Positions 9,899 through 48,388 of a stretch of DNA of 64,000 nt are shown piece by piece (positions within the stretch are counted from its first letter, which is position 1; each line of letters opens with the position of its first letter). The notes below the pieces were generated by a model. That model was not told the DNA's origin, ran no database searches, and was given only the letters and a program-made list of their open reading frames with translations. This DNA comes from a bacterium. Lineage in GTDB: Bacteria > Patescibacteriota > Minisyncoccia > Phycocordibacterales > UBA5272. The DNA lies in NCBI GenBank assembly GCA_027482685.1, contig JAIXVU010000001.1:64910-128909 (forward strand). The letters are read 5' to 3'. The position numbers and the translations under genes were made by a program.

Positions 9899-9942
9899 AT
9901 ATATGATGTTTTGAGAAGGTATCTATCTATGGAGTTGGTATC

Positions 9943-9981
9943 TAAGAAACACGCGACGCCGTAGGCGTCGCGTGTTTCTTA
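9943..9981. terminator. GC-rich perfect hairpin (15-18 bp stem, 3-nt loop) acting as a putative bidirectional terminator
   Basis: GAAACACGCGACGCC-GTA-GGCGTCGCGTGTTTC was read directly. It lies downstream of the 10016..10582 gene and upstream of the methyltransferase gene. Confidence 0.5.
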
Positions 9982-10015
9982 TAAACTAGATATCTCACTT
10001 CTCGTGTAACAAATC

Positions 10016-10582
10016 TTAGTATGCTGTAAAGTTAACTGTAGATGGAGGGACGAAGTCCTTTTCACTAACAGTAGCGACTTCACAGTCATAATCCCCTATT
10101 TGTTCTGGGTTCCATATGTTACCTTTTACACTAGTATCTCCAGTTGGTTGACCTTCCGCATTATTTTTAAATTTAAAGCCCATCGTTGGCATAACCGATG
10201 TCCATGTGTAGGTAAATCCACCTGTAACAATGAAGTTTACTATTACTGATTTTCCTTCTGCTTGAGTTGCTATTTCACCTTTTACATTATCACCACGTAT
10301 GTATACGATACCCTTAGTTGATGTGGTGCCTGAGTTTTCGTTAATAGTACATTTATATGCTCCGCCTTGCTTAATAAACTGAGCAAACGACATCTTTTTC
10401 TCAGCAGGCACTGCTTGGGATGTTGTTGATGATAACGTAGTAGTGCTTGTATTTATACTAGGATTGGTAGTCACTTGCTCTACTTCTTCGTTAGTATTGT
10501 TAGAATTTGTATAATAATATCCGCCGAACGCAATTATTCCAATAATGATAATTCCTACGATTGATTTTCCTAGTGTTGTCAT
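10016..10582 (-). CDS. Hypothetical secreted/membrane-anchored protein
   Basis: An N-terminal TM helix (IVGIIIIGIIAFGGYYY) is followed by a Thr/Ser-rich linker and a beta-rich C-terminal domain. No recognisable family. Confidence 0.5.
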   Translation of the reverse strand: MTTLGKSIVGIIIIGIIAFGGYYYTNSNNTNEEVEQVTTNPSINTSTTTLSSTTSQAVPAEKKMSFAQFIKQGGAYKCTINENSGTTSTKGIVYIRGDNVKGEIATQAEGKSVIVNFIVTGGFTYTWTSVMPTMGFKFKNNAEGQPTGDTSVKGNIWNPEQIGDYDCEVATVSEKDFVPPSTVNFTAY

Positions 10583-12331: not shown

Positions 12332-13258
12332 CTACTTTTCTTTATAGAGGTCTTGGTTGAATCCTCCTACCCCCACGTGCTCCATCTGACCATCATCATA
12401 GATAATGTGTTCGTATGGCATACAGTGGATACACCCCCCTGCCTTTGTATCATCATTATATGTTCCTTTTGGACAGGCAAATGTTTGTTCACCTTCACGC
12501 TTAGCTTGTACCCGCATTTCTTTTACTTGTAATGCGACATCAAATACAGCATTAAATGCTTCGTCTTTATTTGGTAGTGTAACTTCTACCATCTTGTCAC
12601 TCTCTAGATACCAGTAACTTGCTTTTGTTACAGTTCGACCTTGAAGAGCATTACAGAGAAGGAGATAGATCGGAAGCTGTAGCGATCCATCCCTCTCCTC
12701 ATGCTTTCCGGTTTTGAAATCTACAATATGGAGTGAGTCAGTATCTGGCAGATATTCTATCCAGTCAACAAGGCCGTTGAGAATGATGTTGTGATCTTCG
12801 CTTAGATAAAAGTTCGGTGCCATCGTCTCACGCTTGAGCTTGATGCATTTGTTCGGTAAGAATCGTGGATTCTTGATAACATTGTTGATCATCTCTTTGC
12901 CACGCATTTTGAATTGTTCTTCTTCATCTAATGATGAGAAGCCACCGATAGGACCAGAGACTTTGAGCCACGCTTCTTCAAAGCGTGCACGCAAGTCTCT
13001 GTCCATACGCTCGTGTGATGGGTAGTTAGCAAGATCTTCCAAGACTTCATGGGCCGCAATACCAAGCGACATATGTGGAGATATGATAGATATTTTCCTC
13101 CCGTTTTTATTTTTATAGACATTGTGCAGGTAGTAGAGTCGCGGACATTTGAGAAAGTCTCCCATAGATGAATGCGACACCCACACAGCTGAGTACTTAT
13201 CAGGCATAGTAAGTAGAGTATAGCAAAAACCTCTACATACTATGAACAATAGCCACAT
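12332..13258 (-). CDS. PD-(D/E)XK nuclease with a C-terminal Cys cluster (Cas4 / AddB-nuclease-domain-like); the likely start is internal (MPDKYS...)
   Basis: The RecB-family motif IVDFKTGKHEE and the Cys set FACPKG...GGCIHC (an Fe-S ligand pattern as in AddB/Cas4) are present. The same DFKTGK motif occurs in the neighbouring helicase-nuclease. Confidence 0.7.
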   Translation of the reverse strand: MWLLFIVCRGFCYTLLTMPDKYSAVWVSHSSMGDFLKCPRLYYLHNVYKNKNGRKISIISPHMSLGIAAHEVLEDLANYPSHERMDRDLRARFEEAWLKVSGPIGGFSSLDEEEQFKMRGKEMINNVIKNPRFLPNKCIKLKRETMAPNFYLSEDHNIILNGLVDWIEYLPDTDSLHIVDFKTGKHEERDGSLQLPIYLLLCNALQGRTVTKASYWYLESDKMVEVTLPNKDEAFNAVFDVALQVKEMRVQAKREGEQTFACPKGTYNDDTKAGGCIHCMPYEHIIYDDGQMEHVGVGGFNQDLYKEK

Positions 13259-13340
13259 AACCTTGACAAAATGCGATTATATATACTGTTTTCGTCTTTC
13301 AAGACAAGACGTTCATTAACAAATGCTCAAGGAGAGCAAT

Positions 13341-13955
13341 ATGCAAAAGCAGATCAAGGAAGTTTCCATCTGGGGCGGTCTGATCATCGAGTGCCTCAAG
13401 AAGATGAAAGCTGTTGCCCTTCAAGGCAATGTCATCGCCAAGCAGGAGCTGAACGGTGTCATCGTTCTCGTCGAAGGCAACTCCGACGTGGACCTGCTGT
13501 TCCGCGACCAACAACGTGCGCAGTCGGGTTACATCGACGGCCTCGTTGGCCCTCATTCGAAAGCAGAACTTTCTGCCGACGACATCGCCAACGATCAGCG
13601 TATCCGTGAAGCCAACGAAGCACGTTGGGCGAAGGAAAGCGCTGAACGGAAAGTGATCCAAGACCAGAAGGAACGTGAATTCTTCGCCGAAATCAGTACC
13701 TGCCCTACGATGGATCGCGACGAAGCCAAGTGGCAAGAAGGCATCAAGGCGCAGAAAGGCGACGGCTACGGCCTCGCGGTCTACACCTACGCCGAGTACT
13801 TGGCACGTCTGATGCAGAAGAAAATGGCCGAGGGCTACAAGCTCGAAGCTGTCGCCGACGAGTGCTCCAACAAGGCCGACATCCCGTGTGGCATCTCGGG
13901 ATTTATGTACGGCTGTGCTGTGTCCTCTCTGGCGAACTGCTGGAAGCACGGCTAA
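13341..13955 (+). CDS. Hypothetical protein of foreign (GC-rich) composition, inserted between the AddA-like gene and its nuclease partner
   Basis: The Shine-Dalgarno AAGGAGAG lies 5 nt before the ATG at 13341, a TTGACA box sits at 13262-13267, and there is a strong terminator at 14091-14123. GC is about 57%. The antisense 252-aa ORF is rejected. Confidence 0.6.
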   Translation: MQKQIKEVSIWGGLIIECLKKMKAVALQGNVIAKQELNGVIVLVEGNSDVDLLFRDQQRAQSGYIDGLVGPHSKAELSADDIANDQRIREANEARWAKESAERKVIQDQKEREFFAEISTCPTMDRDEAKWQEGIKAQKGDGYGLAVYTYAEYLARLMQKKMAEGYKLEAVADECSNKADIPCGISGFMYGCAVSSLANCWKHG

Positions 13956-14090
13956 GAACTCCGTGTCTGGCACAACAAGAAGTACCAACTCAAGGACGAA
14001 GGTGACAAGGCAAACGCCTCTGGCGGTGTCCTGAACCCTGCGCTCCTTTCTTATCAATTGATTTCTTAAGAAATCTCGTCACTGACGAAT

Positions 14091-31116: not shown

Positions 31117-31740
31117 TTAACACACGTTAGGGGTGAGGACTTTACCTGCAAGGCTGTATGTTGCTATACACAGGAAGATGAGGCCGATATAGCCTATTTC
31201 TAGCCCTTGGTACGGCAAGACGTTTAACATAGTAGAAAAGCCCAAGAAGCCTAGCATGACACTAAGAAGGGCAGTTCCGCACGCTGCACAGCCTATTCCA
31301 AAGAATGCTGCAACAAGCCCTAGTCCGCTATAGAGACCGCTACGCACGATAACTTCTCCGCGGATCTTTACATACGTATATGCAAGTGAGAGATTAATGC
31401 CACCGATTAGTGAACCAAGGAACGCTAGCAAGAATGCTCCAAGGGTAAATGTATTAGATATATCAAAAAGCGTAGTTATAAAAAGTGATAGCTTCGTATG
31501 AAGAGCGAGTGTGGTAAAACCAAAGACCGCATGTGCATCTTTGCCATTTTGTGTGATAAGAAGCAAGAGGAAAAAGATAACCGTAGAGATAAGAAGTACA
31601 AGAAGGCTATCCTTTCTTTGCAAAACAACCTGAAGGGCATTACTTAATCGCTTCATACTAATAAAGGGTAGTGTAACAGAATGTGTGCAAGTGTGCTCGG
31701 GGAAATCTGTAGTACAGAAAATGACGTCATATGACGTCAT
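31117..31740 (-). CDS. Hypothetical polytopic membrane protein; the annotated start lies inside the palindrome, and the true start is probably the internal MKRLSN...
   Basis: Five hydrophobic helices are present. A membrane-embedded CAAC pair hints at a thiol-disulfide function, but this is weak. Confidence 0.4.
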   Translation of the reverse strand: MTSYDVIFCTTDFPEHTCTHSVTLPFISMKRLSNALQVVLQRKDSLLVLLISTVIFFLLLLITQNGKDAHAVFGFTTLALHTKLSLFITTLFDISNTFTLGAFLLAFLGSLIGGINLSLAYTYVKIRGEVIVRSGLYSGLGLVAAFFGIGCAACGTALLSVMLGFLGFSTMLNVLPYQGLEIGYIGLIFLCIATYSLAGKVLTPNVC

Positions 31741-31762
31741 TTTCTGTACTACAGATTTCCCC
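31699..31762. repeat. 64-bp perfect palindrome (32-bp arms, no spacer) whose centre is two tandem self-complementary ATGACGTCAT units
   Basis: GGGGAAATCTGTAGTACAGAAAATGACGTCAT|ATGACGTCATTTTCTGTACTACAGATTTCCCC was verified base by base. Confidence 0.85.
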
Positions 31763-32720: not shown

Positions 32721-32820
32721 CGAAGGACAATAAAGATTTGAAACGTACTTGTATGAATTAAAGTATTTTTGTAATTATGTATTTCACTCATAACTAATTA
32801 CTAAAAACTACTAACTATCT

Positions 32821-32862
32821 TTGGGTATCGTCTAATGGTAGGACATCAGCAAAGCGTAACAA
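32821..32862 (+). pseudogene. Second degenerate tRNA-Gln-like 5'-half copy with a 34-nt insertion at the same position
   Basis: TTGGGTATCGTCTAATGGTAGGACATCAG, then an insertion, then GGTACTGAGCAGG. The insertion is related to the one in copy 1 (both end in ..AATAA(T/A)GC). Confidence 0.45.
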
Positions 32863-32937
32863 CGTGAAGCGGTGGAATAAAGCGGTACTGAGCAGGACCA
32901 GAACAAATCTAAACTGCTCACAGAAGTTAAAAAATAT

Positions 32938-33008
32938 TGGGGTATCGTCTAATGGTAGGACATCAGGTTTTGGTCCTGAGTATCGAGGTTCGAGTCCTTG
33001 TACCCCAG
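32938..33008 (+). tRNA. tRNA-Gln (anticodon TTG)
   Basis: A manual cloverleaf gives acceptor TGGGGTA/TACCCCA, D-arm GTCT..GGAC, anticodon stem TCAGG/CCTGA with loop TTTTGGT, T-arm CGAGG-TTCGAGT-CCTTG and discriminator G. CC follows but is not counted. Confidence 0.8.
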
Positions 33009-33029
33009 CCAACTCGTGCGGAGTTCTGA

Positions 33030-33048
33030 CGCTCGGAGAGCGTCGAAA
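33030..33048 (+). repeat. Left copy of the exact 19-bp direct repeat CGCTCGGAGAGCGTCGAAA (contains the hairpin GACGCTC-GGA-GAGCGTC); putative island boundary
   Basis: It is identical to 48283..48301 and lies 22 nt 3' of tRNA-Gln. Confidence 0.6.
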
Positions 33049-33213
33049 CGTATGAGAGCTCTATACAGTTAATGCATAGCTACTGAGTGTAGCCAGCCAA
33101 ATCTAAAAAGTACCCCAAAAGGGTACTTTTTAGATTTTCCCATTATTACACTTCTTGCACTAAACTAATGACATTAGAGTTAAATTCAATGTTAAAACCT
33201 TCTGCGAGTTTGC

Positions 33214-33600
33214 ATGCAAAATTATGATAGAATAAATAATATGTCAGTAAAAAAAATACCTACAAAAAAGAAAAAAGTGGTAAATGTCTTATTTATTGTT
33301 TCAAAAAGTGGAAGTAATCCTCCACGAATAGACTTTTATGATAAAGGTAAATCTGTTCCAAAAGACAAAATTAAAGTAGTATTCAGAAACTCAAATACTG
33401 GACGTTTTGTTACTGAAAAGTATTCTCACACTCCCCCTATAGATAAAGACCACCCGAGAACTCATCATGTAAATAGAGACTCAAGATCTGGTGCGTTTAT
33501 AACAACAAAATCAGAATCAAGACATCCTTCAACCACCATTACTGAACGCATCTCAAAGGACTCTCCTATACATTTTAGAAAAGATAGCTCTAAAAAATAA
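33214..33600 (+). CDS. Hypothetical basic protein (128 aa), translationally coupled to the RusA-like gene
   Basis: The ORF's stop overlaps the ATG of the next gene (TAATGG). Confidence 0.4.
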   Translation: MQNYDRINNMSVKKIPTKKKKVVNVLFIVSKSGSNPPRIDFYDKGKSVPKDKIKVVFRNSNTGRFVTEKYSHTPPIDKDHPRTHHVNRDSRSGAFITTKSESRHPSTTITERISKDSPIHFRKDSSKK

Positions 33601-34088
33601 TGGAAAATTCATATCAATTTATTATTGATGGTATCATTCCTGCTACACAGCAGGCTTTTAAGAAAGTCACTGGGTTTGACCACTATGTTCGCAAGAATGA
33701 ATCAGCAGCAGTGGCTACATTCAAAAGTGTGGTCACTGAGCAAATTACAAGGGAAAGACCTCCTGCGACTTTCCCAACAACTAACTCTGTTTATGTTGCA
33801 ATTATTCAATTTTTTACATCCAACAGAGATAACTATCAAACTCGTGATGTAGACAACATGGCTAAAACCGTTTTAGATGCATTACAACAGAGTAATCTTT
33901 ACACAAACGATAGCCAAGTAAGAACACTTCTTGTAAGTAAGAGAGTGGACCTTGTGAGAGTTCCTCAAGATTTAGGGTACGTATATATAAAAGTATTAGA
34001 AGACGGAGAAGACATTGATGTTATTGATGACGCACTTGAACAAGCTCTTCAACTTTATGACAGTCTTAAGGCTGGAGAGGTAGAATAA
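33600..34088 (+). CDS. RusA-family Holliday-junction resolvase-like endodeoxyribonuclease
   Basis: RDVDNMAKTVLDAL matches the RusA catalytic D-x-D-N-x-x-K-x-x-x-D-A-L signature. The gene sits in a phage-like context. Confidence 0.6.
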   Translation: MENSYQFIIDGIIPATQQAFKKVTGFDHYVRKNESAAVATFKSVVTEQITRERPPATFPTTNSVYVAIIQFFTSNRDNYQTRDVDNMAKTVLDALQQSNLYTNDSQVRTLLVSKRVDLVRVPQDLGYVYIKVLEDGEDIDVIDDALEQALQLYDSLKAGEVE

Positions 34089-36170: not shown

Positions 36171-38492
36171 TTATACTTTTGCGTACAGTTTCTCTTGGAA
36201 TTTGAAGAAAATTGAACGAATCAAATCAATATCACCAAGTACATCTTTTGCATCCTCAAGTGACTGATATTTGTTTGTGAGCAATATAGGTAATTTCTCT
36301 TGGTCTAATTCTTCTACACCTGTTTCGATATACTTACTTAATACGAACTCAATAAACTCTTTTTGTTTATCATTAAGAGATTCAAAAATAGTTTCCTGAG
36401 ATGTTTCCACTCTTATATCTCTTGGTATTGGTTTAATATCACTATTAAATACATATTCCAACACATCAAAAAGATCACTATTCTCAGCATCAATCAATTT
36501 CTGTAATGTAGTTAATTCGTCTTTTCCATATCCTGCTTCGTCTAGTTTTTCTAGTAAACTTTTTCTAGTTATTGGATTACTCCAAATTTCTCGTAATTCT
36601 TCTTCACTTGTAAAGAATTTAGGTAATGTCCCAAACAAGTTTTGTAAAAACTCTTCCACAGAAATAGGTTTACCGTCTGCACCCCAAAATGAAGTTGCAA
36701 TCATGTGCTGTATTTCACGCTCTTTCCCATCTCGTAACTTAATCTTAAGTTTCTTATTCGGTTCAGTTGGTGGTTCTGGTGGAAAAGGTGGTTCACCCTC
36801 TACTCCTTTTGGTGGTTTAGGTTCCGTAGGTTCGTCATCTACTGGACTGATTGGTTCACCATCCCACTCAGGATCTGCAAAATGATGATAGGCATCTACA
36901 AAGTCATAAATAGTGAAGAACTCCTTACCGTCAAATAAACGTGTACCACGCCCCACAATTTGCTTAAACTCAATCATAGAGTTCACTGGTCGCATTAGAA
37001 CAATATTACGAATATTTCTAGCATCTACTCCAGTTGAAAGTTTCTGTGAAGTGGTGAGTATGGTCGGTATAGTTTTTTCGTTATCTTGGAACTCTCTCAA
37101 GAACTGTTCTCCTATTTCTCCGTCGTTAGCAGTAACACGCACACAATAATTTGGATCAGTGCTTTTCTTGTACTGATTAATCAAATCTCGAACAGCAGCC
37201 GCATGATCTTGAGTAGCACAGAAAACAATAGCTTTTTCATTTTGATCAGCTTCATCCATAAATACTTTCACACGCTTTTCCTCTCTCGCTTTAATTTCGA
37301 TTATCTTATTAAAATCAGGTTCGGTATAAAGTTTTCCTTCCTCGATTTCCCCTTCGATGATTTGGTCATCACTTGTATAAATATAATCGTCTAATGTTGT
37401 CTTAATACGCTTAACCTTAAAAGGAGTAAGGAAACCATCATTTATGCCTTCTTTTAGAGAATAAATATATACTGGCTCACCAAAGTATTTATACGTATCT
37501 ACATTGTCCTTACGTTTTGGTGTGGCTGTTAAACCTAATTGCACAGCAGGAGAAAAATATTCCAAGATTCCTCTCCAGTTTCCTTCGTCGTTTGCACCAC
37601 CACGATGACATTCGTCTATAATAATAAAATCAAAGTAATCAGGTGAGTATTCTCCGAAGTATGGGGCAGGATTACCATCTACATCTTTACCACTCATAAA
37701 GGTTTGAAAGATAGTAAAGAATATAGAGCCATTAGTAGGTACACTTCCTTTTTTACTTATCTCTTTTGGATTGATACGTACAAGAGAGTCTTCTGGAAAT
37801 GAAGAGAATGAGTTATATGCTTGGTCAGCTAGTATGTTTCTATCTGCTAAAAATAGAATACGAGGACGACGAGAACCATCACGCTTTAAGTTCCATCTTG
37901 TCTGAAAAAGTTTCCATGCAATCTGAAAAGCAATAGCTGTTTTACCTGTACCAGTGGCTAATGTTAGTAAGATACGATCCTTATTATTTGCAACAGATTC
38001 AAGAACATTTTTTACTGCTATTTCTTGATAGTAACGTAATTGCCAAGATCCACTCTTATCTTCAAATGGAACAGAACTAAACTTTTCCCTCCATTCATTT
38101 TGAACTGCAAAAGTTTTATTCCAAAGTTCGTCAGGAGAAAGATACTCAGAAACTAAACCCTCAATACCTGTTTTCATACAGATACTGTATATTTCTTTTC
38201 CATTTGTGGAATAGGTTGTTTCTATGTTTAATTTCTCTGCGTACTGCTTGGCTTGTGCAACACCTTCACCAACCCCTATGTTTGCACTCTTTGCCTCAAC
38301 CACAGCCAATTTTATGCCTTTGTAGACCAATACATAATCAGCAGTAAGTAACTTTCCTCTTATACCTCCAGTTTGAATTTTACCAGCAGTAATATTGTAT
38401 TCACGGAGTATTTTAGATCCTTCAATAACACCCCAACCACAATCTTTTAGCTTTGGATCAATTAGCTCTGCCCTTGTTTCAGATTCGTTCAT
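36171..38492 (-). CDS. hsdR: Type I restriction enzyme R subunit (HsdR), compact form
   Basis: The N-terminal HsdR nuclease domain (AVVEAKS), the SF2 motifs LATGTGKT and IIIDECHRG, and a position at the end of the hsdM-hsdS operon all fit HsdR. Confidence 0.8.
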   Translation of the reverse strand: MNESETRAELIDPKLKDCGWGVIEGSKILREYNITAGKIQTGGIRGKLLTADYVLVYKGIKLAVVEAKSANIGVGEGVAQAKQYAEKLNIETTYSTNGKEIYSICMKTGIEGLVSEYLSPDELWNKTFAVQNEWREKFSSVPFEDKSGSWQLRYYQEIAVKNVLESVANNKDRILLTLATGTGKTAIAFQIAWKLFQTRWNLKRDGSRRPRILFLADRNILADQAYNSFSSFPEDSLVRINPKEISKKGSVPTNGSIFFTIFQTFMSGKDVDGNPAPYFGEYSPDYFDFIIIDECHRGGANDEGNWRGILEYFSPAVQLGLTATPKRKDNVDTYKYFGEPVYIYSLKEGINDGFLTPFKVKRIKTTLDDYIYTSDDQIIEGEIEEGKLYTEPDFNKIIEIKAREEKRVKVFMDEADQNEKAIVFCATQDHAAAVRDLINQYKKSTDPNYCVRVTANDGEIGEQFLREFQDNEKTIPTILTTSQKLSTGVDARNIRNIVLMRPVNSMIEFKQIVGRGTRLFDGKEFFTIYDFVDAYHHFADPEWDGEPISPVDDEPTEPKPPKGVEGEPPFPPEPPTEPNKKLKIKLRDGKEREIQHMIATSFWGADGKPISVEEFLQNLFGTLPKFFTSEEELREIWSNPITRKSLLEKLDEAGYGKDELTTLQKLIDAENSDLFDVLEYVFNSDIKPIPRDIRVETSQETIFESLNDKQKEFIEFVLSKYIETGVEELDQEKLPILLTNKYQSLEDAKDVLGDIDLIRSIFFKFQEKLYAKV

Positions 38493-38513
38493 AATCTTGA
38501 CATTATAGCACTT

Positions 38514-39680
38514 TTATAGTTCGCCGTTAAATGCTTTTTGAAGAATACTTTTCTTAAGCTCTTCTAAGTCATTTAATTTTTGTTCGTAGATTGATTCAAG
38601 TCTTTTTGTTTCATTTGAAAGTGATTCGAGTTTTTTAACAATAAGTTCTTGCTCCTTTATTGATTTTGGAAAGCTTATTCTAATAAGTTTTAAATTTTTA
38701 AGAATAATTCTTCTTATTGCAACTCCTGTTTTCATCCCCACGGCCTCTTGTAAAAATTCAGGATTTTTCAAAACATATTTCAAAAAAGACGAATCAATGA
38801 TTTTTCTTTTAGGTCTTATGATTGCCAACGAAGACAACACTACAAAATCTTTTTCAAAATCAACAAGGGACACTTTTCCCACAGTCCCATCTTTTGAAAA
38901 AAGAAGATCCCCTTGATTTGGTTTACATCCATTTTTAAGTAAGGATTCATAATCTTTTTTATTTATAAACTTACACCTTTCAAAATTAATTATATCGTTA
39001 TCAATATCTCTTACTGTTATATACGGATATTCATCTTCATTAGATGAATCTGGGGAAAAATGACTTCCGTCCGTAATTTGTTCACAAACATCCATAAGCT
39101 CAACATTTTCCCAATCGCCTCCTTTATTTGTAAACACACTCTGTAAATAACTCTCAAAAAGCTCCTTAGCATTTTTTAGATTTTGTTCAGCATTATCTTT
39201 TACTTTAGATATGTTAGTAAAAGATTCCTCTAAAATAGATACAATGCGTTGTTGTTCTTTAAGTGGAGGAAGTACGATTGGATATTCTTTAATCATCGGC
39301 ACAGTTAATTGTGGTATTGATGACCCACTATGGGTAAAATCAATACCACTAATTACAAACTTAAGAAAAGTTAAACTAACAACATCTGTTTTAGGTATTA
39401 TAACTATGAGTCGCACCACTGGATAAAAAGGTTCCTGTCTTATTTCAGAGTAACCAATTGTACCTCTTGCTGAAATAGTTATGCTTGGTTTTGTTACTCT
39501 TGCGACATTTGTGTAACCATATAATCCCTTATTTTTCTCACCATTTGAAAAGATGGGGATATTATAAAAATCTGTTTTAACTTTAAATGTGTTATTTTTG
39601 TCTACATCACCACCAGCAAAAAGCTCTTCACAAACATCTCCTAACTTTTTTATTTCCCAGTTAGTTTTCATAATCGCCAT
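38514..39680 (-). CDS. hsdS: Type I restriction-modification specificity subunit (HsdS)
   Basis: Two target-recognition-domain halves are separated by the conserved coiled-coil repeats (LKEQQRIVSILE...; KEQELIVKKLESL). Confidence 0.75.
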   Translation of the reverse strand: MAIMKTNWEIKKLGDVCEELFAGGDVDKNNTFKVKTDFYNIPIFSNGEKNKGLYGYTNVARVTKPSITISARGTIGYSEIRQEPFYPVVRLIVIIPKTDVVSLTFLKFVISGIDFTHSGSSIPQLTVPMIKEYPIVLPPLKEQQRIVSILEESFTNISKVKDNAEQNLKNAKELFESYLQSVFTNKGGDWENVELMDVCEQITDGSHFSPDSSNEDEYPYITVRDIDNDIINFERCKFINKKDYESLLKNGCKPNQGDLLFSKDGTVGKVSLVDFEKDFVVLSSLAIIRPKRKIIDSSFLKYVLKNPEFLQEAVGMKTGVAIRRIILKNLKLIRISFPKSIKEQELIVKKLESLSNETKRLESIYEQKLNDLEELKKSILQKAFNGEL

Positions 39681-41106
39681 AGTTACTCTTTATATACTTT
39701 CTCTGCTTCACATATTCAATTAAAAGATTGTAAAACATCTCCTCTTCCTTGTCCTCAGCAACTTTAATAGAGTCACGACCGCTCTCGTCTTTAGTAATTA
39801 AGTACTTCCCCCAGTAAACATTAGAAGTTGTATTATCTGGTACCTTAATACCAAAAGACTTCAGCATGGTTACTGAGTATCTCCCGTAGGGCATTCTTTG
39901 GTCCATTTTTATAGTAGCGTTTTTTATAATTTCTAGCTTCCTTAAGAAAACATCAGTATTTGAAAAACTGTGTATAGTAACCTTTACCGCTATATCGAAT
40001 ATCTTTTGAAAACTATCCGCAAAATGGTCTTCATGATAACTACCTTTTTTTAACTCAAGTAGCTGAAATCTCGTTGCTTTTAGTAATGACCTCAAATTCA
40101 TAATTTCACTATTTATTGCTCTTGAAAAGATATGCCAGAGAAAAAGCTTAATGTACCCACTATTCCCAATAGAAGAACTTAAATTTGGTTCTTCATTCTT
40201 AATACTCATAGCAATTTGCTCAACTGTAGCGAGAATTGCTTTTTTATTATCAAAATAAAATGGACTAACAGTAAAAAACTTGTCCATGTACCCAGAGAAA
40301 TCTGTCTCTGCTCCATACTTATGGTGAAAAAAGTTTTTTAGGTTTGTGTAATCTGCAACAATAACTATTAAATCAAAACCAAATTTATTTTCATGCTCCT
40401 TTTCAAAGTAGGCGGATAATATATTTAATATCCTAAATACGTGCTCAGGGTCTATTCTGTCTAAGTCATCTAAAACAAGAATACTTTTTTTGGTATCTTT
40501 TTGAAGAGTGATTTTTTCTTTCAAGAGATGACTTAGAAAATCTGTTTCAGAAATGTTTTTTGCTTTAATCTGCTCAACATATTTTTCTACTAATGCTTTT
40601 TCTCCGCCTTTATATTCATGCTTAAATTCTTGAAATTCTTTATCTAATTCGAGTAAGTCCTTTAGTGGTCTACCGAGTTTAGTAAGAGAGGATGAAATTG
40701 GGTCTGGAATTGCATCTCCATAGTTTTCTGCAATAGAAAGAGTTGACTGTAAGACAGAATTTACAGTAAATCTATTTCTTGCCCAAGAATAAAAAAGAAG
40801 TGCTGATTCTTTTATTCCATCAACTTTATTACCTTGTAAAATATCCTTATTCTTTTTTAGTAACTCCACAAGAATGTCATATTTTATAAGCTCTAAAATA
40901 TCCTCATTACTGTTAATCTGATAGTTAATAGGATATAAATGAAACACATCATACTTATCTTTTCTGGATTCAAAGAATTCATTTAAGAAAAAAGTCTTTC
41001 CAATGCCGAAAGGTCCAGAGAAAAAAACTCTTGAATTATTTTCCATAACTAAAAAATCTTCAAAAACTTTTTCTACTGTATCAATTGGTATTTTAATATC
41101 TGCCAT
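39661..41106 (-). CDS. KAP-family P-loop NTPase embedded in the Type I R-M operon
   Basis: Walker A is SGPFGIGKT. The KAP-type Walker B is ILVLDDLDRIDPEHVF. The gene overlaps hsdS by 20 nt and starts 6 nt after hsdM. Confidence 0.65.
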   Translation of the reverse strand: MADIKIPIDTVEKVFEDFLVMENNSRVFFSGPFGIGKTFFLNEFFESRKDKYDVFHLYPINYQINSNEDILELIKYDILVELLKKNKDILQGNKVDGIKESALLFYSWARNRFTVNSVLQSTLSIAENYGDAIPDPISSSLTKLGRPLKDLLELDKEFQEFKHEYKGGEKALVEKYVEQIKAKNISETDFLSHLLKEKITLQKDTKKSILVLDDLDRIDPEHVFRILNILSAYFEKEHENKFGFDLIVIVADYTNLKNFFHHKYGAETDFSGYMDKFFTVSPFYFDNKKAILATVEQIAMSIKNEEPNLSSSIGNSGYIKLFLWHIFSRAINSEIMNLRSLLKATRFQLLELKKGSYHEDHFADSFQKIFDIAVKVTIHSFSNTDVFLRKLEIIKNATIKMDQRMPYGRYSVTMLKSFGIKVPDNTTSNVYWGKYLITKDESGRDSIKVAEDKEEEMFYNLLIEYVKQRKYIKSNYGDYEN

Positions 41107-41111
41107 AGAAA

Positions 41112-42578
41112 CTAAATAATCTTTTTAATTAAATTAAGGATATCTTCACTCTCTTTATCTAAAGCTTTCATTTCTTTCAAAATATCTTCAGGTGTTCGTA
41201 GTACTGTTTCCTCTTTTTTATTTGGGTTCTTAGCACTCAAATCAAAAGTTTTTTGGTCTATATCTTTCACGTTTACACTCCATGAGTTTTCACTCTCAGC
41301 TTTTGTTTTTTGAAGCTTAATAAAATCTTCTAAATCTTTTTCACTAAGTGAGTTTGTTTTACCTAAATTTCTATCTAAGTTAAGGTGGTAGAACCAAACC
41401 TTCTTTGTGGATGATCCTTTTTCAAAAAATAACACAACTGTTTTTACTCCTGCTCCAGTAAAAGTTCCAGCAGGTAAATCAAGTACAGTATGCAGGTTGC
41501 AATTTTCTAACAATAACTTTCTTAAGCTAACAGTTGCATTATCTGTATTACTTAGGAATGTATTTTTAATAACGACGCCACCTTTACCTCCAGCTTTTAA
41601 TATCTTGATAAAATGCTGTAAGAAAAGAGATGCTGTTTCTCCTGTTTTAATTGGAAAATTTTGTTGTACTTCTGCTCGTTCTTTTCCGCCAAATGGAGGG
41701 TTTGCTAATACGATATTATAACGGTCTTTCTCTTGTATGTCTGCAAGATTTTCAGCAAGGGTATTGGTATGGATAATATTCGGAGCTTCTATACCATGTA
41801 AAATCATATTCATCGTACCGATGATATAAGCAAGAGATTTCTTTTCCTTTCCATAGAAAGTTTTCTTTTGTAAAATTTCTACATCTTTTGTTGTGAGGTT
41901 TTTACTCTTCTTTAAATAATCAAAAGCTTCACATAAAAACCCAGCACTACCTACTGCACCATCATAAATAGTGTCACCAATTTTTGGAGCAACTACTTTA
42001 ACAATAGTAGTAATGAGTGGTCGTGGAGTATAGTACTCACCACCATTACGCCCAGCGTTCCCCATGTTCTGTATTTTAGATTCATACAAATGACTCATCT
42101 CATGCTTTTCAGCGTGGGTACGGAAACGAAGTTCGTCTATACGATTAATAACTTCACGTAAGTTGTAACCACTATGAATTCTATTTTTTAATTCAGAAAA
42201 AATCTCACCAATCTTATATTCAATAGTATCTGGACTTTCAGCACTTGTTTTAAATTTCTTAAGATAAGGGAAGAGCTTATGATCAACAAAATCTTTCAGA
42301 TCATCTCCTGTTAATTCTTTATGATGATCAAGTTTCCCTGTCTTATCCTTTGGGGTAGCCCACGTAGTCCAACTATATTCAGGAGATATAATATTAGTAT
42401 ATTTTTTTCCTGCAAGTTCAGCCGCTGTTTTCTTGTCTTTCTCTAAATCGTCTAGATACTTCAAAAACAAGACCCATGAGGTTTGTTCAACATAATCAAG
42501 CTCACTTCCGCATCCTGCATCTTTGTGTAAGATGTCGTCTATATTCTTAAAAGTTTGTTCAAACATAAATTTACTCAT
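41112..42578 (-). CDS. hsdM: Type I restriction-modification N6-adenine methyltransferase subunit (HsdM)
   Basis: The HsdM N-terminal domain, AdoMet motif I (DGAVGSAGFL) and the catalytic VLANPPFGG are present. Confidence 0.85.
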   Translation of the reverse strand: MSKFMFEQTFKNIDDILHKDAGCGSELDYVEQTSWVLFLKYLDDLEKDKKTAAELAGKKYTNIISPEYSWTTWATPKDKTGKLDHHKELTGDDLKDFVDHKLFPYLKKFKTSAESPDTIEYKIGEIFSELKNRIHSGYNLREVINRIDELRFRTHAEKHEMSHLYESKIQNMGNAGRNGGEYYTPRPLITTIVKVVAPKIGDTIYDGAVGSAGFLCEAFDYLKKSKNLTTKDVEILQKKTFYGKEKKSLAYIIGTMNMILHGIEAPNIIHTNTLAENLADIQEKDRYNIVLANPPFGGKERAEVQQNFPIKTGETASLFLQHFIKILKAGGKGGVVIKNTFLSNTDNATVSLRKLLLENCNLHTVLDLPAGTFTGAGVKTVVLFFEKGSSTKKVWFYHLNLDRNLGKTNSLSEKDLEDFIKLQKTKAESENSWSVNVKDIDQKTFDLSAKNPNKKEETVLRTPEDILKEMKALDKESEDILNLIKKII

Positions 42579-42591
42579 AATTATATCACTT

Positions 42592-44004
42592 TTAACTAGC
42601 TCGGACTAACTCAATTTCGCTTATATAAATCTTTTTATCTGATAGCAAAATTTTGCTTTTCAAACACCCTAACAACTCTCGTTTCTCTATATCCTTTCCA
42701 TCTCTCAAAATATACTTCGCATAATTTCGTATATCTACATCACCTACACTAGTACTATCCTTAACCCCTAAAACACCTATCTGAAAGCGTTTGAATCTAT
42801 TAACCTCATCTTTTATCTTCTCTTTCATTCCTATCTCGTCTAGGTCAATTTTATCGAACACCTCTTCTAACTGTTTAATAAGATCATCTTCATTAAGGTA
42901 TCCACTTTTACAATGTCTATCCCTCACCTTATTACACCCATAATAGACATATCTATGAATATTCCCATTCTTCTGTTTCTTTAACTTTTCATCGGCACAT
43001 ACTCCTGAACCACATAAACCACAGGTCATAAGTTTAGTGAAAGCAAATTCTTTACTTCCGAATTCTGTTTTTGTAATCTGTCGTGTTATCTGTACTTGGA
43101 CAAGATCAAAGAGTTCTTTTGTGATTAATGGCTCATGTGATCCTTTATACCAGTTACCACTCTTTTTAGGATATTCAAATTCTCCGTAATAGAAAGTATT
43201 TCTTAAGAGGATATGTATCGTACTTAACGTAAGCCCTTTATTACTACTTACCGATCTAAAATTAAGATCAAACTTTAACCAATGATACACTTTTCTACCA
43301 CTCCATTTTTCGTAAGCAACTTTCTCAAACATTTGTTTCATTATATGACCTCTCTCTGGATCAATATATGTCTGACATTTTCTATCTATTCTTTTTTCTT
43401 TAAGATAACCAGTAGGAGCAGGTGCTGGCCATAAACCCATTTCTACTCTTGTCTTTAAACCTCTCTTAACATTAATACTTTTATTATCATTTTCTAACTT
43501 CGCTTGAGAACAAAGAATCATTAATAAAAACTTTTCATTTGGGGAATTAGAAAATGTTTGTCCATAAGTTCTAATTTGAAGAAGTAACTTTTGATCCATT
43601 AAATCAACAAGCGACCCTAGGTCGCCTGCATTTCTACTTAATCTATCTGGTGCCCATGTCAGCACTCCGTTATATCTACCAATTCGTATATCTTCTAAAA
43701 TTTCTTTAAACACTGGTCGCTGTCCTGATTCTTTCGCTGAATGAGATTCTCGTCTAATATCAATAATTTCTAAACCTTCTCTTTCTGCTAACGAAAGCAT
43801 TTCTTTAATTTGTGAATCAATAGAAAGAATTTGTCTTTCTTCTGATTCAGTACTTTTTCTACTATATAAAACATATTTGATTTTTGTTGTTGGAATAACA
43901 GCCATATTACCTATTAGTCCAAATGGTGCTTGTTGTTGCATATATATATTAATGACAGAACCATAATCCCTGCATAGTCTATGCAGAACTAAAAAAGGCG
44001 ACAT
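42592..44004 (-). CDS. Large serine recombinase (resolvase/invertase catalytic domain + recombinase domain + zinc ribbon); the likely start is the internal MAVIPTT...
   Basis: The catalytic Ser context is YVLYSRKSTESEE. The Cys-rich ribbon CGLCGSG...C is present. The size is about 440-470 aa. Confidence 0.8.
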   Translation of the reverse strand: MSPFLVLHRLCRDYGSVINIYMQQQAPFGLIGNMAVIPTTKIKYVLYSRKSTESEERQILSIDSQIKEMLSLAEREGLEIIDIRRESHSAKESGQRPVFKEILEDIRIGRYNGVLTWAPDRLSRNAGDLGSLVDLMDQKLLLQIRTYGQTFSNSPNEKFLLMILCSQAKLENDNKSINVKRGLKTRVEMGLWPAPAPTGYLKEKRIDRKCQTYIDPERGHIMKQMFEKVAYEKWSGRKVYHWLKFDLNFRSVSSNKGLTLSTIHILLRNTFYYGEFEYPKKSGNWYKGSHEPLITKELFDLVQVQITRQITKTEFGSKEFAFTKLMTCGLCGSGVCADEKLKKQKNGNIHRYVYYGCNKVRDRHCKSGYLNEDDLIKQLEEVFDKIDLDEIGMKEKIKDEVNRFKRFQIGVLGVKDSTSVGDVDIRNYAKYILRDGKDIEKRELLGCLKSKILLSDKKIYISEIELVRAS

Positions 44005-44209
44005 TGTGAGAGATTTATTTGTCTACAAAAATGCCTTAGCAAAAGACCTTTTATGCGATATAATCAATAGATTAATACAAGAGTATTAAGAGAAAAAATT
44101 TGCAGTAGCCTAACCCTTTAAGTAATTAAAGGTATGGTGAAAAAGTCCTATCAGATCAAAAACCCCATCATGTGGGCTTTGCTCTGATAGGCCATATCTG
44201 GAAACGGAT

Positions 44210-45040
44210 ATGAAGGTCGCAAGACCTTACTCACGTGGTGGGATTTTTGCTTCCCAACGAGAGATTACTAAGTCCTATCAGACATATATGAACCAATCAG
44301 CATCTCCTTTTGGAGATAATTTTAGATATTTAGTAGAAGAACGAATCAAAAACTTTTGGGGATATGGTAACTTTAAAAGTGATATATGGTTTGTCGGAAT
44401 GGAAGAAGGTCACAGTGGAGATATTGAAAGTTTAGTTAAAAGATTAGAAGCTACGAAAGACAAAGAGACTCTGGATATCTATGATGACATGAAGCATGAT
44501 GTTGCTCATATGAAGTGGTTTGAAGAAGGAGCGAAAACTCAAGCAACGTATCGTCGACTAATTTATATATTACTCTATCTTAAAAACAAGGTAGAGCCGA
44601 CATTAGAGGAGATAAGACAATTTCAAATAAAAGAATTTGGTAGAAAAACATCAAATCATACAGCTCTTGAATTAATGCCACTTCCTGCAAAATCTATTAA
44701 TGCAAAAGATTGGGTATATAAGGAAGCGAATATAGAAGGATTGAATACTCGAAAAGAATATTTAGCAACATATAGACCAAGACGTATAGCACGACTTCGT
44801 GAATTAATTTCTATACATAAACCAAAGATTGTTATTTTCTACTCAAGGGTATATTTACCAGAATGGAGAGAAACGATACCTGTACCTTTAGAAGAAATTA
44901 AGGATACTAAACTTCATATAGCAAAAGACCACAACACGTTATATGTTGTAGTCCCTCACTCAACCTCTTACGGCATATCACTTAGTGATTGGAAGAAGAT
45001 TGCAGAAACATTAGTTAGTCACCATAGTCATCATCATTAA
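44210..45040 (+). CDS. Hypothetical protein (the likely start is internal). It has weak uracil-DNA-glycosylase-superfamily-like motifs (VGMEEGHSG; VVPHSTSYG), which are speculative
   Basis: ORF only; the motif resemblance is by eye. Confidence 0.35.
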   Translation: MKVARPYSRGGIFASQREITKSYQTYMNQSASPFGDNFRYLVEERIKNFWGYGNFKSDIWFVGMEEGHSGDIESLVKRLEATKDKETLDIYDDMKHDVAHMKWFEEGAKTQATYRRLIYILLYLKNKVEPTLEEIRQFQIKEFGRKTSNHTALELMPLPAKSINAKDWVYKEANIEGLNTRKEYLATYRPRRIARLRELISIHKPKIVIFYSRVYLPEWRETIPVPLEEIKDTKLHIAKDHNTLYVVVPHSTSYGISLSDWKKIAETLVSHHSHHH

Positions 45041-45422
45041 TATCGCCAACTACATTTGACGGCATATTTAATGGATCAACGGTATCAATAGTAATTGAAG
45101 TAATTGGTACAAACGGTTTCTTCCAAAAATCTTTTGGTCGTGGTCGCATGTACTCTTTTTTTTGGTTATCAAGATAATACTGGATAGCTCTCAAACTTCC
45201 ATTATTGATATGAGAGATAAGTTTACTCTCTGCAAGATCTATAATAGAGTCAGTCCCACACAAAAGAGCAAGATCTACACTTTCTTGAAACTCTGGATCA
45301 TCTTTACACCAACGATAGATTGTATTCCTCGCTAATCCTACTTTCTCGCAGGCGAGAGAAATATTGGGAACGGTGTTAAGTTGTTCAAGAAAAGCTTTTA
45401 CCTTTTTATCCTTTTTCGCCAT
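45015..45422 (-). CDS. HTH-domain protein, possibly a terminase-small-subunit-like or regulatory protein
   Basis: The N-terminal HTH is NISLACEKVGLARNTIYRWCKDD. The gene overlaps the ParB-MTase gene by 17 nt. Confidence 0.45.
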   Translation of the reverse strand: MAKKDKKVKAFLEQLNTVPNISLACEKVGLARNTIYRWCKDDPEFQESVDLALLCGTDSIIDLAESKLISHINNGSLRAIQYYLDNQKKEYMRPRPKDFWKKPFVPITSITIDTVDPLNMPSNVVGDINDDDYGD

Positions 45423-46692
45423 TTCGGATAACCTTTGCCTTTTTGCCTGTTAATGCTTCGTAACGTCGTATTGTTAAGTCACAAAATATTGGTTCAATCT
45501 CTACAGCATATACTCTACGCTTAAGATTTAGACCAGCCATAATTGTACTTCCTGAACCAGAGAAACTATCGAGAATGATGTCTGTCATTTTTGTACAACG
45601 GCGGATTGCCTTTTCGTATACTTCAGGTGGCTTCATTGTACTGTGTTCGTATTCGTTGCCAGAGAGACGCTTTTCCATCCATACAGTTAGATAATCGTGT
45701 GCTTGTTGTAACAAATCGTTACCTGTTGTCGTGTCGTTATTCATGACTTCATTTAGATCATTCACACCCTTTACGATATATGGCTTACCACGAGTGCCGT
45801 AGGTACAAGGTTCGTAACACTTGTTGAAAGCGACAGATGGGACGGGGTTCTGGGAATTTTTAAGCCATAAACATACTCGACGATTAATAATGCCAAATTC
45901 ACGATACAAAGTTTGTATGAGCCATATATACGCTTGATCGGACCAATAAAATATATGAGCATTTTCCTTGGTTACAGAAAGTGCAGCGACCATGCTCTTT
46001 CTTAAGAAGTCTGAGTATTCCTTGTCTGTCTTGTTGTCATCGACGGTACCACCGTAATTCTGCTTGCCACCAATTCCACTGTTATAGTTTACAGATATAT
46101 TGTAAATTGGATCTGAGATTATCATAGAAGCACGTTCGTCACCAAAGAGCTTTTGAAGTGTCTCTGGAAGAGTGGAATCTCCACATATCAATCGGCAGTC
46201 CCCAAGTTCTATGATATCGCCAACTTGGGTTGTTGCTTTCTTAAGCTTAATCTTCTCAAGTTCGACCTCTGGAGAAAACTTTCCTTGATCGAGTGTTCTG
46301 TTCCAAATATCGTCGAGTTGTTGTTGGTCAAAGCCGATATCAAGAAGTAGATCAAAATCTAATCGTTGGAGCTTGTCGATATCAAACTCACCAGTATTTT
46401 TGCTGAGTCGGACATTCAATTCCTTTTCTTTTTCAAGATCTGAAATATTTACGAAGACAACTGGAACTTCTACCATCTTGAGTTCCTTTGCTACTTCAAG
46501 ACGGAAGTCTCCTCCGATAACGGTATTCTCTCGACCTTTAGCACTGTTACAGATTATCGGATCCACGAATCCGAATCGCTTGATACTCTCTTTAAGCTGA
46601 TTTGCTTGTTCCGTTGTATGTTTGCGAGGATTGTACTCAGATGGATTAAGATTGGTAATCGGGAGATAAACGACTTTAATGTTGTTAGTCAT
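45406..46692 (-). CDS. ParB-like nuclease domain fused to a beta-class N6-adenine/N4-cytosine DNA methyltransferase
   Basis: The N-terminal ParB/Srx motif (PSEYNPRK; VIGGDFRL), MTase motif IV (SDPIYNI) and motif I (DSFSGSGST) are present. Confidence 0.75.
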   Translation of the reverse strand: MTNNIKVVYLPITNLNPSEYNPRKHTTEQANQLKESIKRFGFVDPIICNSAKGRENTVIGGDFRLEVAKELKMVEVPVVFVNISDLEKEKELNVRLSKNTGEFDIDKLQRLDFDLLLDIGFDQQQLDDIWNRTLDQGKFSPEVELEKIKLKKATTQVGDIIELGDCRLICGDSTLPETLQKLFGDERASMIISDPIYNISVNYNSGIGGKQNYGGTVDDNKTDKEYSDFLRKSMVAALSVTKENAHIFYWSDQAYIWLIQTLYREFGIINRRVCLWLKNSQNPVPSVAFNKCYEPCTYGTRGKPYIVKGVNDLNEVMNNDTTTGNDLLQQAHDYLTVWMEKRLSGNEYEHSTMKPPEVYEKAIRRCTKMTDIILDSFSGSGSTIMAGLNLKRRVYAVEIEPIFCDLTIRRYEALTGKKAKVIRNGEKG

Positions 46693-46696
46693 AAAA

Positions 46697-47113
46697 TTAT
46701 TTGTTTAGATCTACTCCACCTAGCTGTAAGAACATTTTTATGTGTCCAATTTTACCATCGCCAGTTGCTTGCTCATAAAGTGAATTAATGACTTCAGGAA
46801 TTCTATCCTTAATCCATCCAGAGATGTTCTTTTGAACAAAGAACGCAAACTTTGGGTGATGCTTCCAGTCTGTTAAGGTGTCTTCGCAAACTCCGACTGA
46901 TGAAGCAAATTCTTTCTGAGTTTTCATCTCGCGAAAATCTCGTGGAGTTGAGTACCACTCAGTGAATTTTAGGAATTCAGGCACATTGTAAATATCTGAG
47001 ATAACTATCGAAATATCGGAGTAAATCGGATTTGTTTCTGTAACCTTTGCACTGTCTGTATGAATTTCTTTCATATGTTTATTAGAATTAACTTTGAATA
47101 AACAAAAGCTCAC
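46697..47113 (-). CDS. Hypothetical protein with a possible HTH (KEFASSVGVCEDTLTDW)
   Basis: ORF only, in tandem with the methyltransferase gene. Confidence 0.4.
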   Translation of the reverse strand: MSFCLFKVNSNKHMKEIHTDSAKVTETNPIYSDISIVISDIYNVPEFLKFTEWYSTPRDFREMKTQKEFASSVGVCEDTLTDWKHHPKFAFFVQKNISGWIKDRIPEVINSLYEQATGDGKIGHIKMFLQLGGVDLNK

Positions 47114-47279
47114 GCACCTTGGGTAAGGTTGCGCGAGCTTTTAGTTAAAAAATCACTCGAGATATTGCTTTTGTATACTCATTATATCACACTAATTTTT
47201 CATGCAAGTTTCTTATTTTCAAAGGGTTTTTTAGAATTTTCGCATTAAAAATTCTGTTTGAGAATAGTTTTAAAAAGAT

Positions 47280-47903
47280 CTATACCTGTTCCTTTTCTTG
47301 TTCGTATCTTCGTCTTCTTTCGTCGAGAGTTTCTTCTTCAAATTCCCAATAAACTGGACCTTGTGCAGGATAAGCAACACCTAACGCCATTTGAGCTGCT
47401 TTAGATAGACTCATTGTTACATCATTAAATAGAACATTGGAACCTTCTGTTAAAGTACACGTAACTTCTGGATTTCTTGTGAAAGTAAATACACTGCCAA
47501 CAGGTAATTCATAAGCTTCAAAATCGTATCTCTTTGTGTACCGTCTTGCTTTGATAAGCGCTTTCTTGTCCTCCTCATATTCAACGATATCTCCTTGTGG
47601 AGTAACTTCTCTAACTTCAGCTAATTTAAGTGCAGCAACAACTCGTTCAGGTGTTTCAGTAAAGAACTCTCTGTTCTCAGCAACTCTTGTTCTTCCAAAA
47701 GCTTCATGTAATTTTCTTTCAACGAAATCCATATCATTTACTTCCGAAGCATAGAAAACTTCAAAAGGAAGAGGTACACCTGAAGCTCTAGAAAGCTCCT
47801 TTACTCTTCTATCGAGGTCATTAGTCTTTCCAATCTTTATGTACCCAGGCATTGCCACGTTAGTTAAAATATAGATGATATTCATATTCAGTAATACTAC
47901 CAT
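47280..47903 (-). CDS. GIY-YIG nuclease-family protein (T5orf172/DUF4357-like)
   Basis: NIIYILTN...GYIKIGKTNDLDRRVKEL is the GIY-YIG core. The likely start is at MNIIYIL. Confidence 0.6.
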   Translation of the reverse strand: MVVLLNMNIIYILTNVAMPGYIKIGKTNDLDRRVKELSRASGVPLPFEVFYASEVNDMDFVERKLHEAFGRTRVAENREFFTETPERVVAALKLAEVREVTPQGDIVEYEEDKKALIKARRYTKRYDFEAYELPVGSVFTFTRNPEVTCTLTEGSNVLFNDVTMSLSKAAQMALGVAYPAQGPVYWEFEEETLDERRRRYEQEKEQV

Positions 47904-48282: not shown

Positions 48283-48301
48283 CGCTCGGAGAGCGTCGAA
48301 A
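48283..48301 (+). repeat. Right copy of the 19-bp direct repeat CGCTCGGAGAGCGTCGAAA
   Basis: Identical to 33030..33048. Confidence 0.6.
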
Positions 48302-48388
48302 AGTTAAGTTAATAATTAACAAAAAAGCATTACAGGTCTTGACCGTACTTTTTCTGAGCACGTGCCTCTCAGCTGGTATACTTAAATA

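Follow-up and report, generated by a model that had tools for sequence, protein, structure and literature searches.

Organization of the R-M operon and its embedded gene

The window analyzed here, a 64-kb stretch of contig JAIXVU010000001.1 from a bacterium of the Patescibacteriota, contains a Type I restriction-modification (R-M) operon in which a gene for a KAP-family P-loop nucleoside triphosphatase (NTPase) lies between the methyltransferase gene hsdM and the specificity gene hsdS. Gene coordinates were taken from an open reading frame (ORF) list of the window obtained by heuristic ORF calling. The order on the minus strand is serine recombinase, hsdM, KAP, hsdS and hsdR, and the genes of the operon are:

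41112-42578, minus strand: hsdM, Type I methyltransferase, 488 residues (N6_Mtase, 2.8e-62, and HsdM_N)
39661-41106, minus strand: KAP NTPase, the embedded cargo gene, 481 residues (PF07693)
38514-39680 (longest ORF), minus strand: hsdS, specificity subunit, 388 residues (Methylase_S in two stretches, 4.9e-45)
36171-38492, minus strand: hsdR, restriction and translocase subunit, 773 residues (ResIII, EcoEI_R_C and HSDR_N)

An earlier note on this DNA had given the same coordinates and the same order from hsdM to hsdR, which the ORF list reproduced exactly, and had omitted the 470-residue large serine recombinase upstream of hsdM. In profile searches HsdM matched the PADLOC model MTase_I at 6.1e-161 over positions 2-489 of 491, and HsdR matched REase_I at 1.5e-127. 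Furthermore, HsdR scored 799.8 bits (cutoff 550) over positions 1-767 of 768 against NF046051, the NCBIfam equivalog for the EcoAI/FtnUII R subunit. Its 773 residues are thus the full length of the family model and normal, and not unusually compact as had been noted earlier. By these matches the host operon is a Type I R-M system of the EcoAI/FtnUII (Type IB) type, with HsdM, HsdS (two target-recognition domains) and HsdR all intact. PADLOC scans of the neighboring genes returned Type I models only and nothing further.

The junctions within the operon are tight. The hsdM stop is separated from the KAP ATG by 5 nucleotides (nt), rather than by the 6 nt first reported, while the reported overlap of KAP with hsdS was upheld. 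This overlap measures 20 nt with the longest hsdS ORF and 11 nt with a conserved ATG at 39671. The latter is the probable true start of hsdS (MKTNWEIKK), overlapping the KAP stop by 11 nt (ATGAAAACTAA), because homology with a sister island (locus L162, described below) resumes exactly at this ATG. The spacing from hsdS to hsdR is 21 nt. No terminator-like sites were found on the minus strand between hsdM, KAP and hsdS. Owing to the 5-nt gap, the 11-nt overlap and the lack of an internal terminator, KAP is probably co-expressed with the R-M genes, in support of the co-transcription proposed earlier. A promoter-like site with an extended -10 element (TGcTATAAT) was observed at 38502-38530 on the minus strand, within the hsdS-hsdR gap, some 10 nt ahead of the ATG of hsdR, and hsdR may have its own, nearly leaderless promoter.

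Sequence and predicted structure of the KAP protein

Assignment of the 481-residue product to the KAP family, together with the two nucleotide-binding motifs pointed out in the earlier note, was borne out by a match to PF07693 (KAP_NTPase) of 50.7 bits (cutoff 20, E 2e-13) over residues 27-302, and both motifs are intact. The same domain is carried by most KAP homologues. The main features of the protein are:

40993-41016, minus strand: Walker A motif GPFGIGKT, residues 31-38
40456-40479, minus strand: Walker B motif LVLDDLDR, residues 210-217 (LDDLDR, 212-217)
39664-40260, minus strand: C-terminal region, residues 283-481, a helical bundle with a small unit of three strands and a helix

Among 75 aligned family members, G34, G36 and K37 of the Walker A motif are invariant. 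In alignments of 43 and 75 sequences L210, D214, R217, P220, F224, R225 and N228 of the Walker B region are also invariant, and D213 is conserved in at least 90% of sequences. The stretch directly after Walker B, IDPEHxFRxxN, is conserved in the family. Conservation extends over the full length of the protein, with R339 and a C-terminal F/Y pair invariant or nearly so. A profile search of 1.84 billion cluster representatives gave a family of 1,762 clusters (50% identity) with a threshold of E<=1e-3, or 1,278 with E<=1e-30. Nearly every member is about 480 residues long, and the nearest relatives come mostly from Patescibacteria and DPANN metagenome-assembled genomes. The family had no match in phage records, and the only matches in plasmid records were two distant, partial ones from Segatella and Prevotella (29-32% identity).

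No membrane helix was detected in the KAP protein, the highest 19-residue Kyte-Doolittle mean being 0.93 against a usual threshold of about 1.6. Membrane helices inserted in the NTPase domain are typical of many prokaryotic KAP proteins and are not obligatory. In the AlphaFold model (predicted local distance difference test score 73, predicted template modeling score 0.64) residues 90-190 form a helical, polar insert of low confidence. The C-terminal region of about 200 residues is confidently modeled, yet matched no known fold, and the fused effector that the earlier note had recommended looking for in the C-terminal half was found neither by sequence nor by fold comparison.

The closest solved folds to the model as a whole are immune and DNA-loading switch ATPases, with fold-comparison scores of 12.0 for NRC2, 11.4 for ZAR1, 11.3 for TnsC, 11.2 for RdrA of RADAR (deposited as 'KAP NTPase domain-containing protein'), about 10.5 for Cdc6/ORC, 9.8 for BrxC and 9.1 for Avs3. 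A library of viral structures gave only a marginal match, to a giant-virus KAP protein, and the family profile had no match among PDB sequences at E<=1 save one de novo protein (0.14). The KAP protein is a soluble, STAND/ORC-like P-loop NTPase.

A polymorphic slot between hsdM and hsdS

At 90% identity the HsdM of the window falls into a cluster of five proteins, and the contigs of this cluster share a common backbone of recombinase, hsdM, slot, hsdS and hsdR. Most of these islands, where enough flanking sequence is available, run on into the same genes for a 132-residue protein, a 399-residue protein and RusA. The content of the slot differs among them:

Window: KAP, 481 residues
L162 (8484-9341), L164 (1735-2592) and L165 (3179-4036): a 285-residue protein
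Contig from sample ERZ1426853: a 131-residue protein with no hit
L163: empty, hsdM overlapping hsdS, with a 139-residue gene (9653-10072) between hsdS and hsdR instead

Comparison of the window with L162 by blastn and by alignment of the boundaries located the edges of the slot:

39672-41144, minus strand: exchangeable cargo slot without counterpart in L162

Identity is 86-92% in the sequence flanking the cargo, and the break in homology coincides exactly with the cargo itself, from 41144 down to 39672. The KAP gene and the 285-residue cargo ORF of L162 both end in the same ATGAAAACTAA overlap with hsdS. Since near-identical islands carry other cargo or an empty slot, with homology breaking at the cargo, KAP is a separable, exchangeable module of the R-M island, and the R-M system exists without it.

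The 285-residue protein has a weak match to Trypsin_2 (E 0.0047) and a GLSGSP serine-protease-like motif. Together with the 131-residue and 139-residue slot-associated genes, it is a candidate defense gene. The sister island on the ERZ1426853 contig also carries, directly after hsdR, a gene for a reverse transcriptase-Trypsin_2 fusion of 538 residues (12385-14001 of that locus), which is likely a defense gene at the edge of the island.

Association of KAP with R-M genes across related loci

For the survey of related loci the 80 best hits in each of two collections were taken, yielding 79 loci from species-representative genomes and 80 from metagenomes. The counts refer to 160 loci carrying a KAP homologue and were made with crude ORF calls on contigs many of which are short. 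HsdM, HsdS and HsdR were labeled with hidden Markov models (HMMs) iterated from the proteins of the window. A Type I gene lay within four genes of KAP in 47 of the 160 loci, Type I genes flanked KAP on both sides in 22, and the direct order hsdM-KAP-hsdS occurred in 14. HsdM occupied the position immediately before KAP in 18 of 144 loci and HsdS the position immediately after it in 16 of 133, with the strand of KAP shared in nearly every case. At distances of 4 to 9 genes, Type I genes made up 0-6% of genes. The gene is thus no housekeeping NTPase lacking enrichment in R-M or defense contexts, the outcome by which the earlier note would have been contradicted; the family is strongly enriched in R-M contexts.

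Of the 101 loci with enough context, 42 were linked to a Type I gene within three genes, and 59 (about 58%) were not. On a rough neighbor-joining tree, Type I linkage required at least 21 state changes, indicating that the association was gained or lost many times, and the strict hsdM-KAP-hsdS order required at least nine. The Type I partners of KAP belong to at least three divergent families: HsdM and HsdR matched those of the window at E 0 in L004, L006 and L009, and were only distant relatives of them, at E 1e-6 to 1e-47, in L013, L033, L061 and L065.

Other classes of R-M genes also accompany KAP. In L102 (2-3908) a Type III Mod gene is followed after 4 nt by KAP and after a further 3 nt by Res, and KAP follows a Type III Mod gene with a gap of 3-4 nt in L025, L111 (3864-7401), L121 and L159, the order in L025 (6071-10380) being Mod, KAP and an Abi_2 protein. 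Elsewhere KAP follows a SNF2 gene and MmeI-like methylases (L115 and L123) or a large methylase and an SMC-like ATPase (L078, L079 and L153). Given this range of partners, covering divergent Type I families, Type III and further R-M types, KAP is unlikely to have one specific protein partner. No recurrent partner gene outside R-M was found in the 160 loci.

The 11-nt overlap of KAP with hsdS, of the form ATGnnnnnTAA, is kept in at least 11 related loci. Because the KAP proteins of these loci are only 38-65% identical, translational coupling of KAP to hsdS appears to be long-standing.

Genomic island setting

The operon lies in a stretch with a guanine-plus-cytosine (GC) content of 0.31-0.36, versus about 0.38-0.42 on either side, that starts just past a tRNA-Gln gene (32938-33011). 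Further features of this stretch are:

42592-44004, minus strand: large serine recombinase, 470 residues, 13 nt upstream of hsdM (Resolvase, Recombinase and Zn_ribbon_recom)
33600-34088: RusA resolvase, on the other side of the island
45015-47903, minus strand: phage-like genes, comprising two terminase-small-like ORFs (135 and 138 residues), a ParB_N and N6_N4 methyltransferase fusion (428 residues) and a T5orf172 protein (207 residues)
44107-44228, plus strand: LOOT RNA motif (Rfam RF03000), scoring 93.2 bits (gathering score 46.4) and oriented divergently to the recombinase gene

The gene content suggests that the low-GC stretch is a mobile or phage-derived island, possibly a degraded prophage, of which the serine recombinase is the probable mobility gene. 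The 90% cluster of the recombinase has 30 members, one of them from a Parcubacteria metagenome-assembled genome, and a recombinase again adjoins the R-M/KAP cassette in L009, L033, L084, L088 and L162-L165.

The LOOT motif was detected at 71-93 bits in eight loci including the window, the other copies being in L162 (5337-5455), L165 (24-150), L088 (31-158), L020 (3272-3407), L163 (2928-3056), L008 (4133-4249) and L003 (7801-7925 and 15450-15572). Within the window no second copy was found at E<=1. In five of the eight loci the motif adjoins a large serine recombinase gene, from which it is divergent where both strands are known, and precedes a variable gene of its own strand. A 7.5-kb segment of L003 containing KAP and the recombinase is flanked by two copies in inverted orientation, and in L163 the motif and the recombinase are separated by an inserted SMODS (CBASS-like) gene block. 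The motif may mark or regulate these islands or be their site; no paper on it was found in the literature.

Two copies of a 22-nt direct repeat (21/22 identical; core CGCTCGGAGAGCGTCGAAA, itself a small hairpin) lie at 33030-33051 and 48283-48304. The first lies 19 nt past tRNA-Gln and the second 15.25 kb away, so that the entire low-GC island is enclosed between them. These repeats may be the island boundaries, although long direct repeats are not usual for serine recombinases and the core is a small hairpin. A 33-nt copy of the 5' part of tRNA-Gln (94% identical; 32817-32849 versus 32934-32966) is present 117 nt upstream of the gene and may be the scar of an earlier integration. At 31699-31762 a strong hairpin scored below threshold against several microRNA-precursor models (38 bits and E 8e-5 at best); it is probably an intergenic palindrome such as a terminator.

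Proposed function and alternative explanations

With gene order and overlaps, an intact conserved NTPase site, recurrent R-M embedding and slot polymorphism all directly observed, KAP is best explained, with modest confidence, as an autonomous, single-gene, NTP-driven defense candidate directed against phages or mobile elements and carried as exchangeable cargo of a mobile Type I R-M island. Placement in the anti-phage class, as a candidate, follows from context and from the precedent of other KAP proteins. From the combined data we infer a defense function, a switch or oligomerization behavior, and independence from the R-M enzymes. The N-terminal NTPase module would act as an NTP-dependent switch or oligomerization engine, and the C-terminal domain of about 200 residues would sense a cue from the invader, execute the response, or both. 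By analogy with the structural neighbors, nucleotide-dependent oligomerization might be triggered through the C-terminal domain. Embedding in the operon would provide co-transcription, translational coupling to hsdS and co-mobilization with the R-M genes, and would entail no mechanistic dependence of KAP on restriction.

Several points weigh against this explanation. The C-terminal half contains no fused nuclease or other recognizable effector domain. The match of the KAP protein to PDC-S20, a PADLOC defense candidate considered below, is weak and covers only part of the profile (positions 133-327 of 450, E 9.4e-9, no curated cutoff). The neighborhood counts rest on crude ORFs, purpose-built HMMs, the best 80 hits per collection and many short contigs, and the HsdM model also captures some large methylases that are not of Type I. 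Lastly, the conserved 11-nt overlap attests to long-term integration into the operon and could reflect a functional tie to R-M instead of hitch-hiking.

In the earlier note, genes such as PrrC and RloC served as models for a secondary defense activated when restriction is blocked. In such an arrangement, considered unlikely here, the R-M complex would keep KAP inactive, and KAP would fire when an anti-restriction protein (e.g. a DNA mimic) disables the complex. The location of KAP inside the R-M operon, translationally coupled to hsdS and conserved over many loci, is consistent with a guard of this kind, as is its embedding in Type III R-M; PrrC is the classical precedent, and Tmn synergizes with PrrC-type sensory ATPases (bioRxiv 10.1101/2022.08.21.504612). 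However, the 59 of 101 loci without a Type I gene within three genes contrast with PrrC, which is almost exclusively embedded (bioRxiv 10.1101/2024.01.29.577857), and a conserved physical interface is improbable for a protein whose partners span Type III, further R-M types and no fewer than three divergent Type I families. In addition, near-identical islands have an empty slot or unrelated genes in it, and KAP has neither a HEPN/anticodon-nuclease or other effector domain nor an ABC/Rad50-type ATPase.

In a broader form, held to be quite unlikely, the KAP family would serve ATP-dependent R-M enzymes of both Type I and Type III as a general guard or co-factor, sensing an anti-restriction protein or a complex that is disabled or stalled and being switched on by NTP-driven oligomerization. 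The 11-nt overlap with hsdS would then fix the stoichiometry of KAP to the complex, and the family would amount to a counterpart of PrrC built on KAP, with a wholly different effector logic. The conserved hsdS overlap and the repeated embedding in two ATP-dependent R-M classes leave the guard arrangements some, albeit low, probability.

Rather than an independent defense, KAP might be an accessory factor that modulates the R-M enzyme, through assembly, DNA loading, restriction alleviation after transfer or protection of the complex. The preferred site between methylase and specificity genes, with gaps of 1-15 nt and the 11-nt overlap, would tie its dosage to HsdS; resemblance in fold to the DNA-loading AAA+ proteins TnsC, MuB and ORC/Cdc6 and association with several ATP-dependent R-M types point the same way. 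This role is regarded as distinctly improbable. Close Type I operons occur without KAP, one with hsdM followed directly by hsdS and others with unrelated cargo, and most KAP homologues do not adjoin any R-M gene. To our knowledge, no Type I or Type III system needs such an accessory factor.

A function of KAP for the serine-recombinase island itself, as a TnsC/MuB-like target selector or a maintenance/addiction ATPase, is very unlikely: several loci have the recombinase beside the cassette, the structural neighbors include TnsC and MuB, and the low-GC island contains RusA, a terminase-small-like gene, a ParB-methylase and T5orf172, but the recombinase accounts for only 12 ORFs across the 160 loci, no transposase partner recurs, sister islands retain the recombinase without KAP, and phage and plasmid records yielded, respectively, no match and the two distant matches.

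The natural allelic series on one backbone, consisting of KAP, a protease-like gene, a small gene and an empty slot, is the more useful product of this analysis, as it permits a direct test of whether R-M-embedded genes depend on their host system. If the autonomous KAP candidate does defend cells, a soluble subfamily that lacks a membrane anchor and is common in Patescibacteria-like and DPANN metagenome-assembled genomes would join the few KAP NTPases shown to block phage, and its mechanism would be new because the C-terminal domain matches no known fold.

Comparison with known systems

The closest precedents are four KAP NTPases with uncharacterized C-terminal regions that protect Enterococcus from phage (Andersen et al., PLoS Biol 2026, PMC13552941). 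Protection by one of them, EF_KAP, requires Walker B and the C-terminal region, and the genes are found beside serine recombinases (PMC13552941). Like EF_KAP and the three metagenomic KAPs, the KAP of the window is encoded by one gene, starts with a KAP NTPase domain that has the conserved DD in its Walker B, ends in a region (about 200-320 residues) without sequence or structural match, and has a serine recombinase nearby. It differs from EF_KAP, which is modeled with two membrane helices, in having none. It differs from the set, as compared by published description, in that its recombinase is large rather than small and that it is embedded in an R-M operon.

Tmn (Gao et al. 2020) is a KAP or YobI-type transmembrane defense NTPase (bioRxiv 10.1101/2022.08.21.504612; PMC13001434). 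Both Tmn, whose NTPase motifs are required, and the KAP gene are single genes built on a KAP-like P-loop NTPase. Tmn has membrane helices inserted in the NTPase domain and acts through Mg2+ export and plasmolysis, whereas the KAP of the window is soluble, and the PADLOC Tmn model matched neither it nor any of 74 relatives.

Among systems defined by embedding, Payne et al. (bioRxiv 10.1101/2024.01.29.577857) reported phage defense by genes embedded in Hma systems; applied to Type I R-M, BREX and DISARM, 'guilt by embedding' yielded 145 candidates that were added to PADLOC (bioRxiv 10.1101/2024.01.29.577857). Models of one of these, PDC-S20, were weakly matched by 62 of 75 family members (best 3.3e-12). 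PDC-S20 is, like KAP, a candidate single-gene defense, and the match spans the NTPase core only, suggesting a sister subfamily rather than clear membership. No mention of PDC-S20 by name was found in the literature.

PrrC and RloC share with KAP both embedding in Type I R-M and an NTPase domain. PrrC combines an ABC-type ATPase with a HEPN-like anticodon nuclease and lies between hsdS and hsdR, almost exclusively within R-M loci. In contrast, the KAP of the window is KAP/STAND-like, lacks a nuclease domain and lies between hsdM and hsdS, and its family often occurs away from R-M. Unlike RADAR, it has no adjoining RdrB adenosine deaminase, its neighbors being hsdM and hsdS with no recurrent partner across the 160 loci. 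Unlike the NB-ARC proteins of the STAND/NLR class (Avs, NRC2 and ZAR1), it has neither C-terminal sensor repeats nor an effector domain at the N terminus, and its 481 residues compare with 730-2,000 for RdrA and the STAND/NLR proteins.

An independent defense module inside a Type I R-M cluster has been shown experimentally for TgvAB (GmrSD-like) on VPI-2 of Vibrio cholerae, a two-gene Type IV system (DUF262/DUF1524; PMC11411939). TgvAB complements restriction from within the operon, and the location of KAP is comparable, although the proteins are unrelated and KAP is a single gene. The KAP gene fits both the R-M-embedded defense candidates and the KAP anti-phage NTPases already described, as a soluble candidate subfamily.

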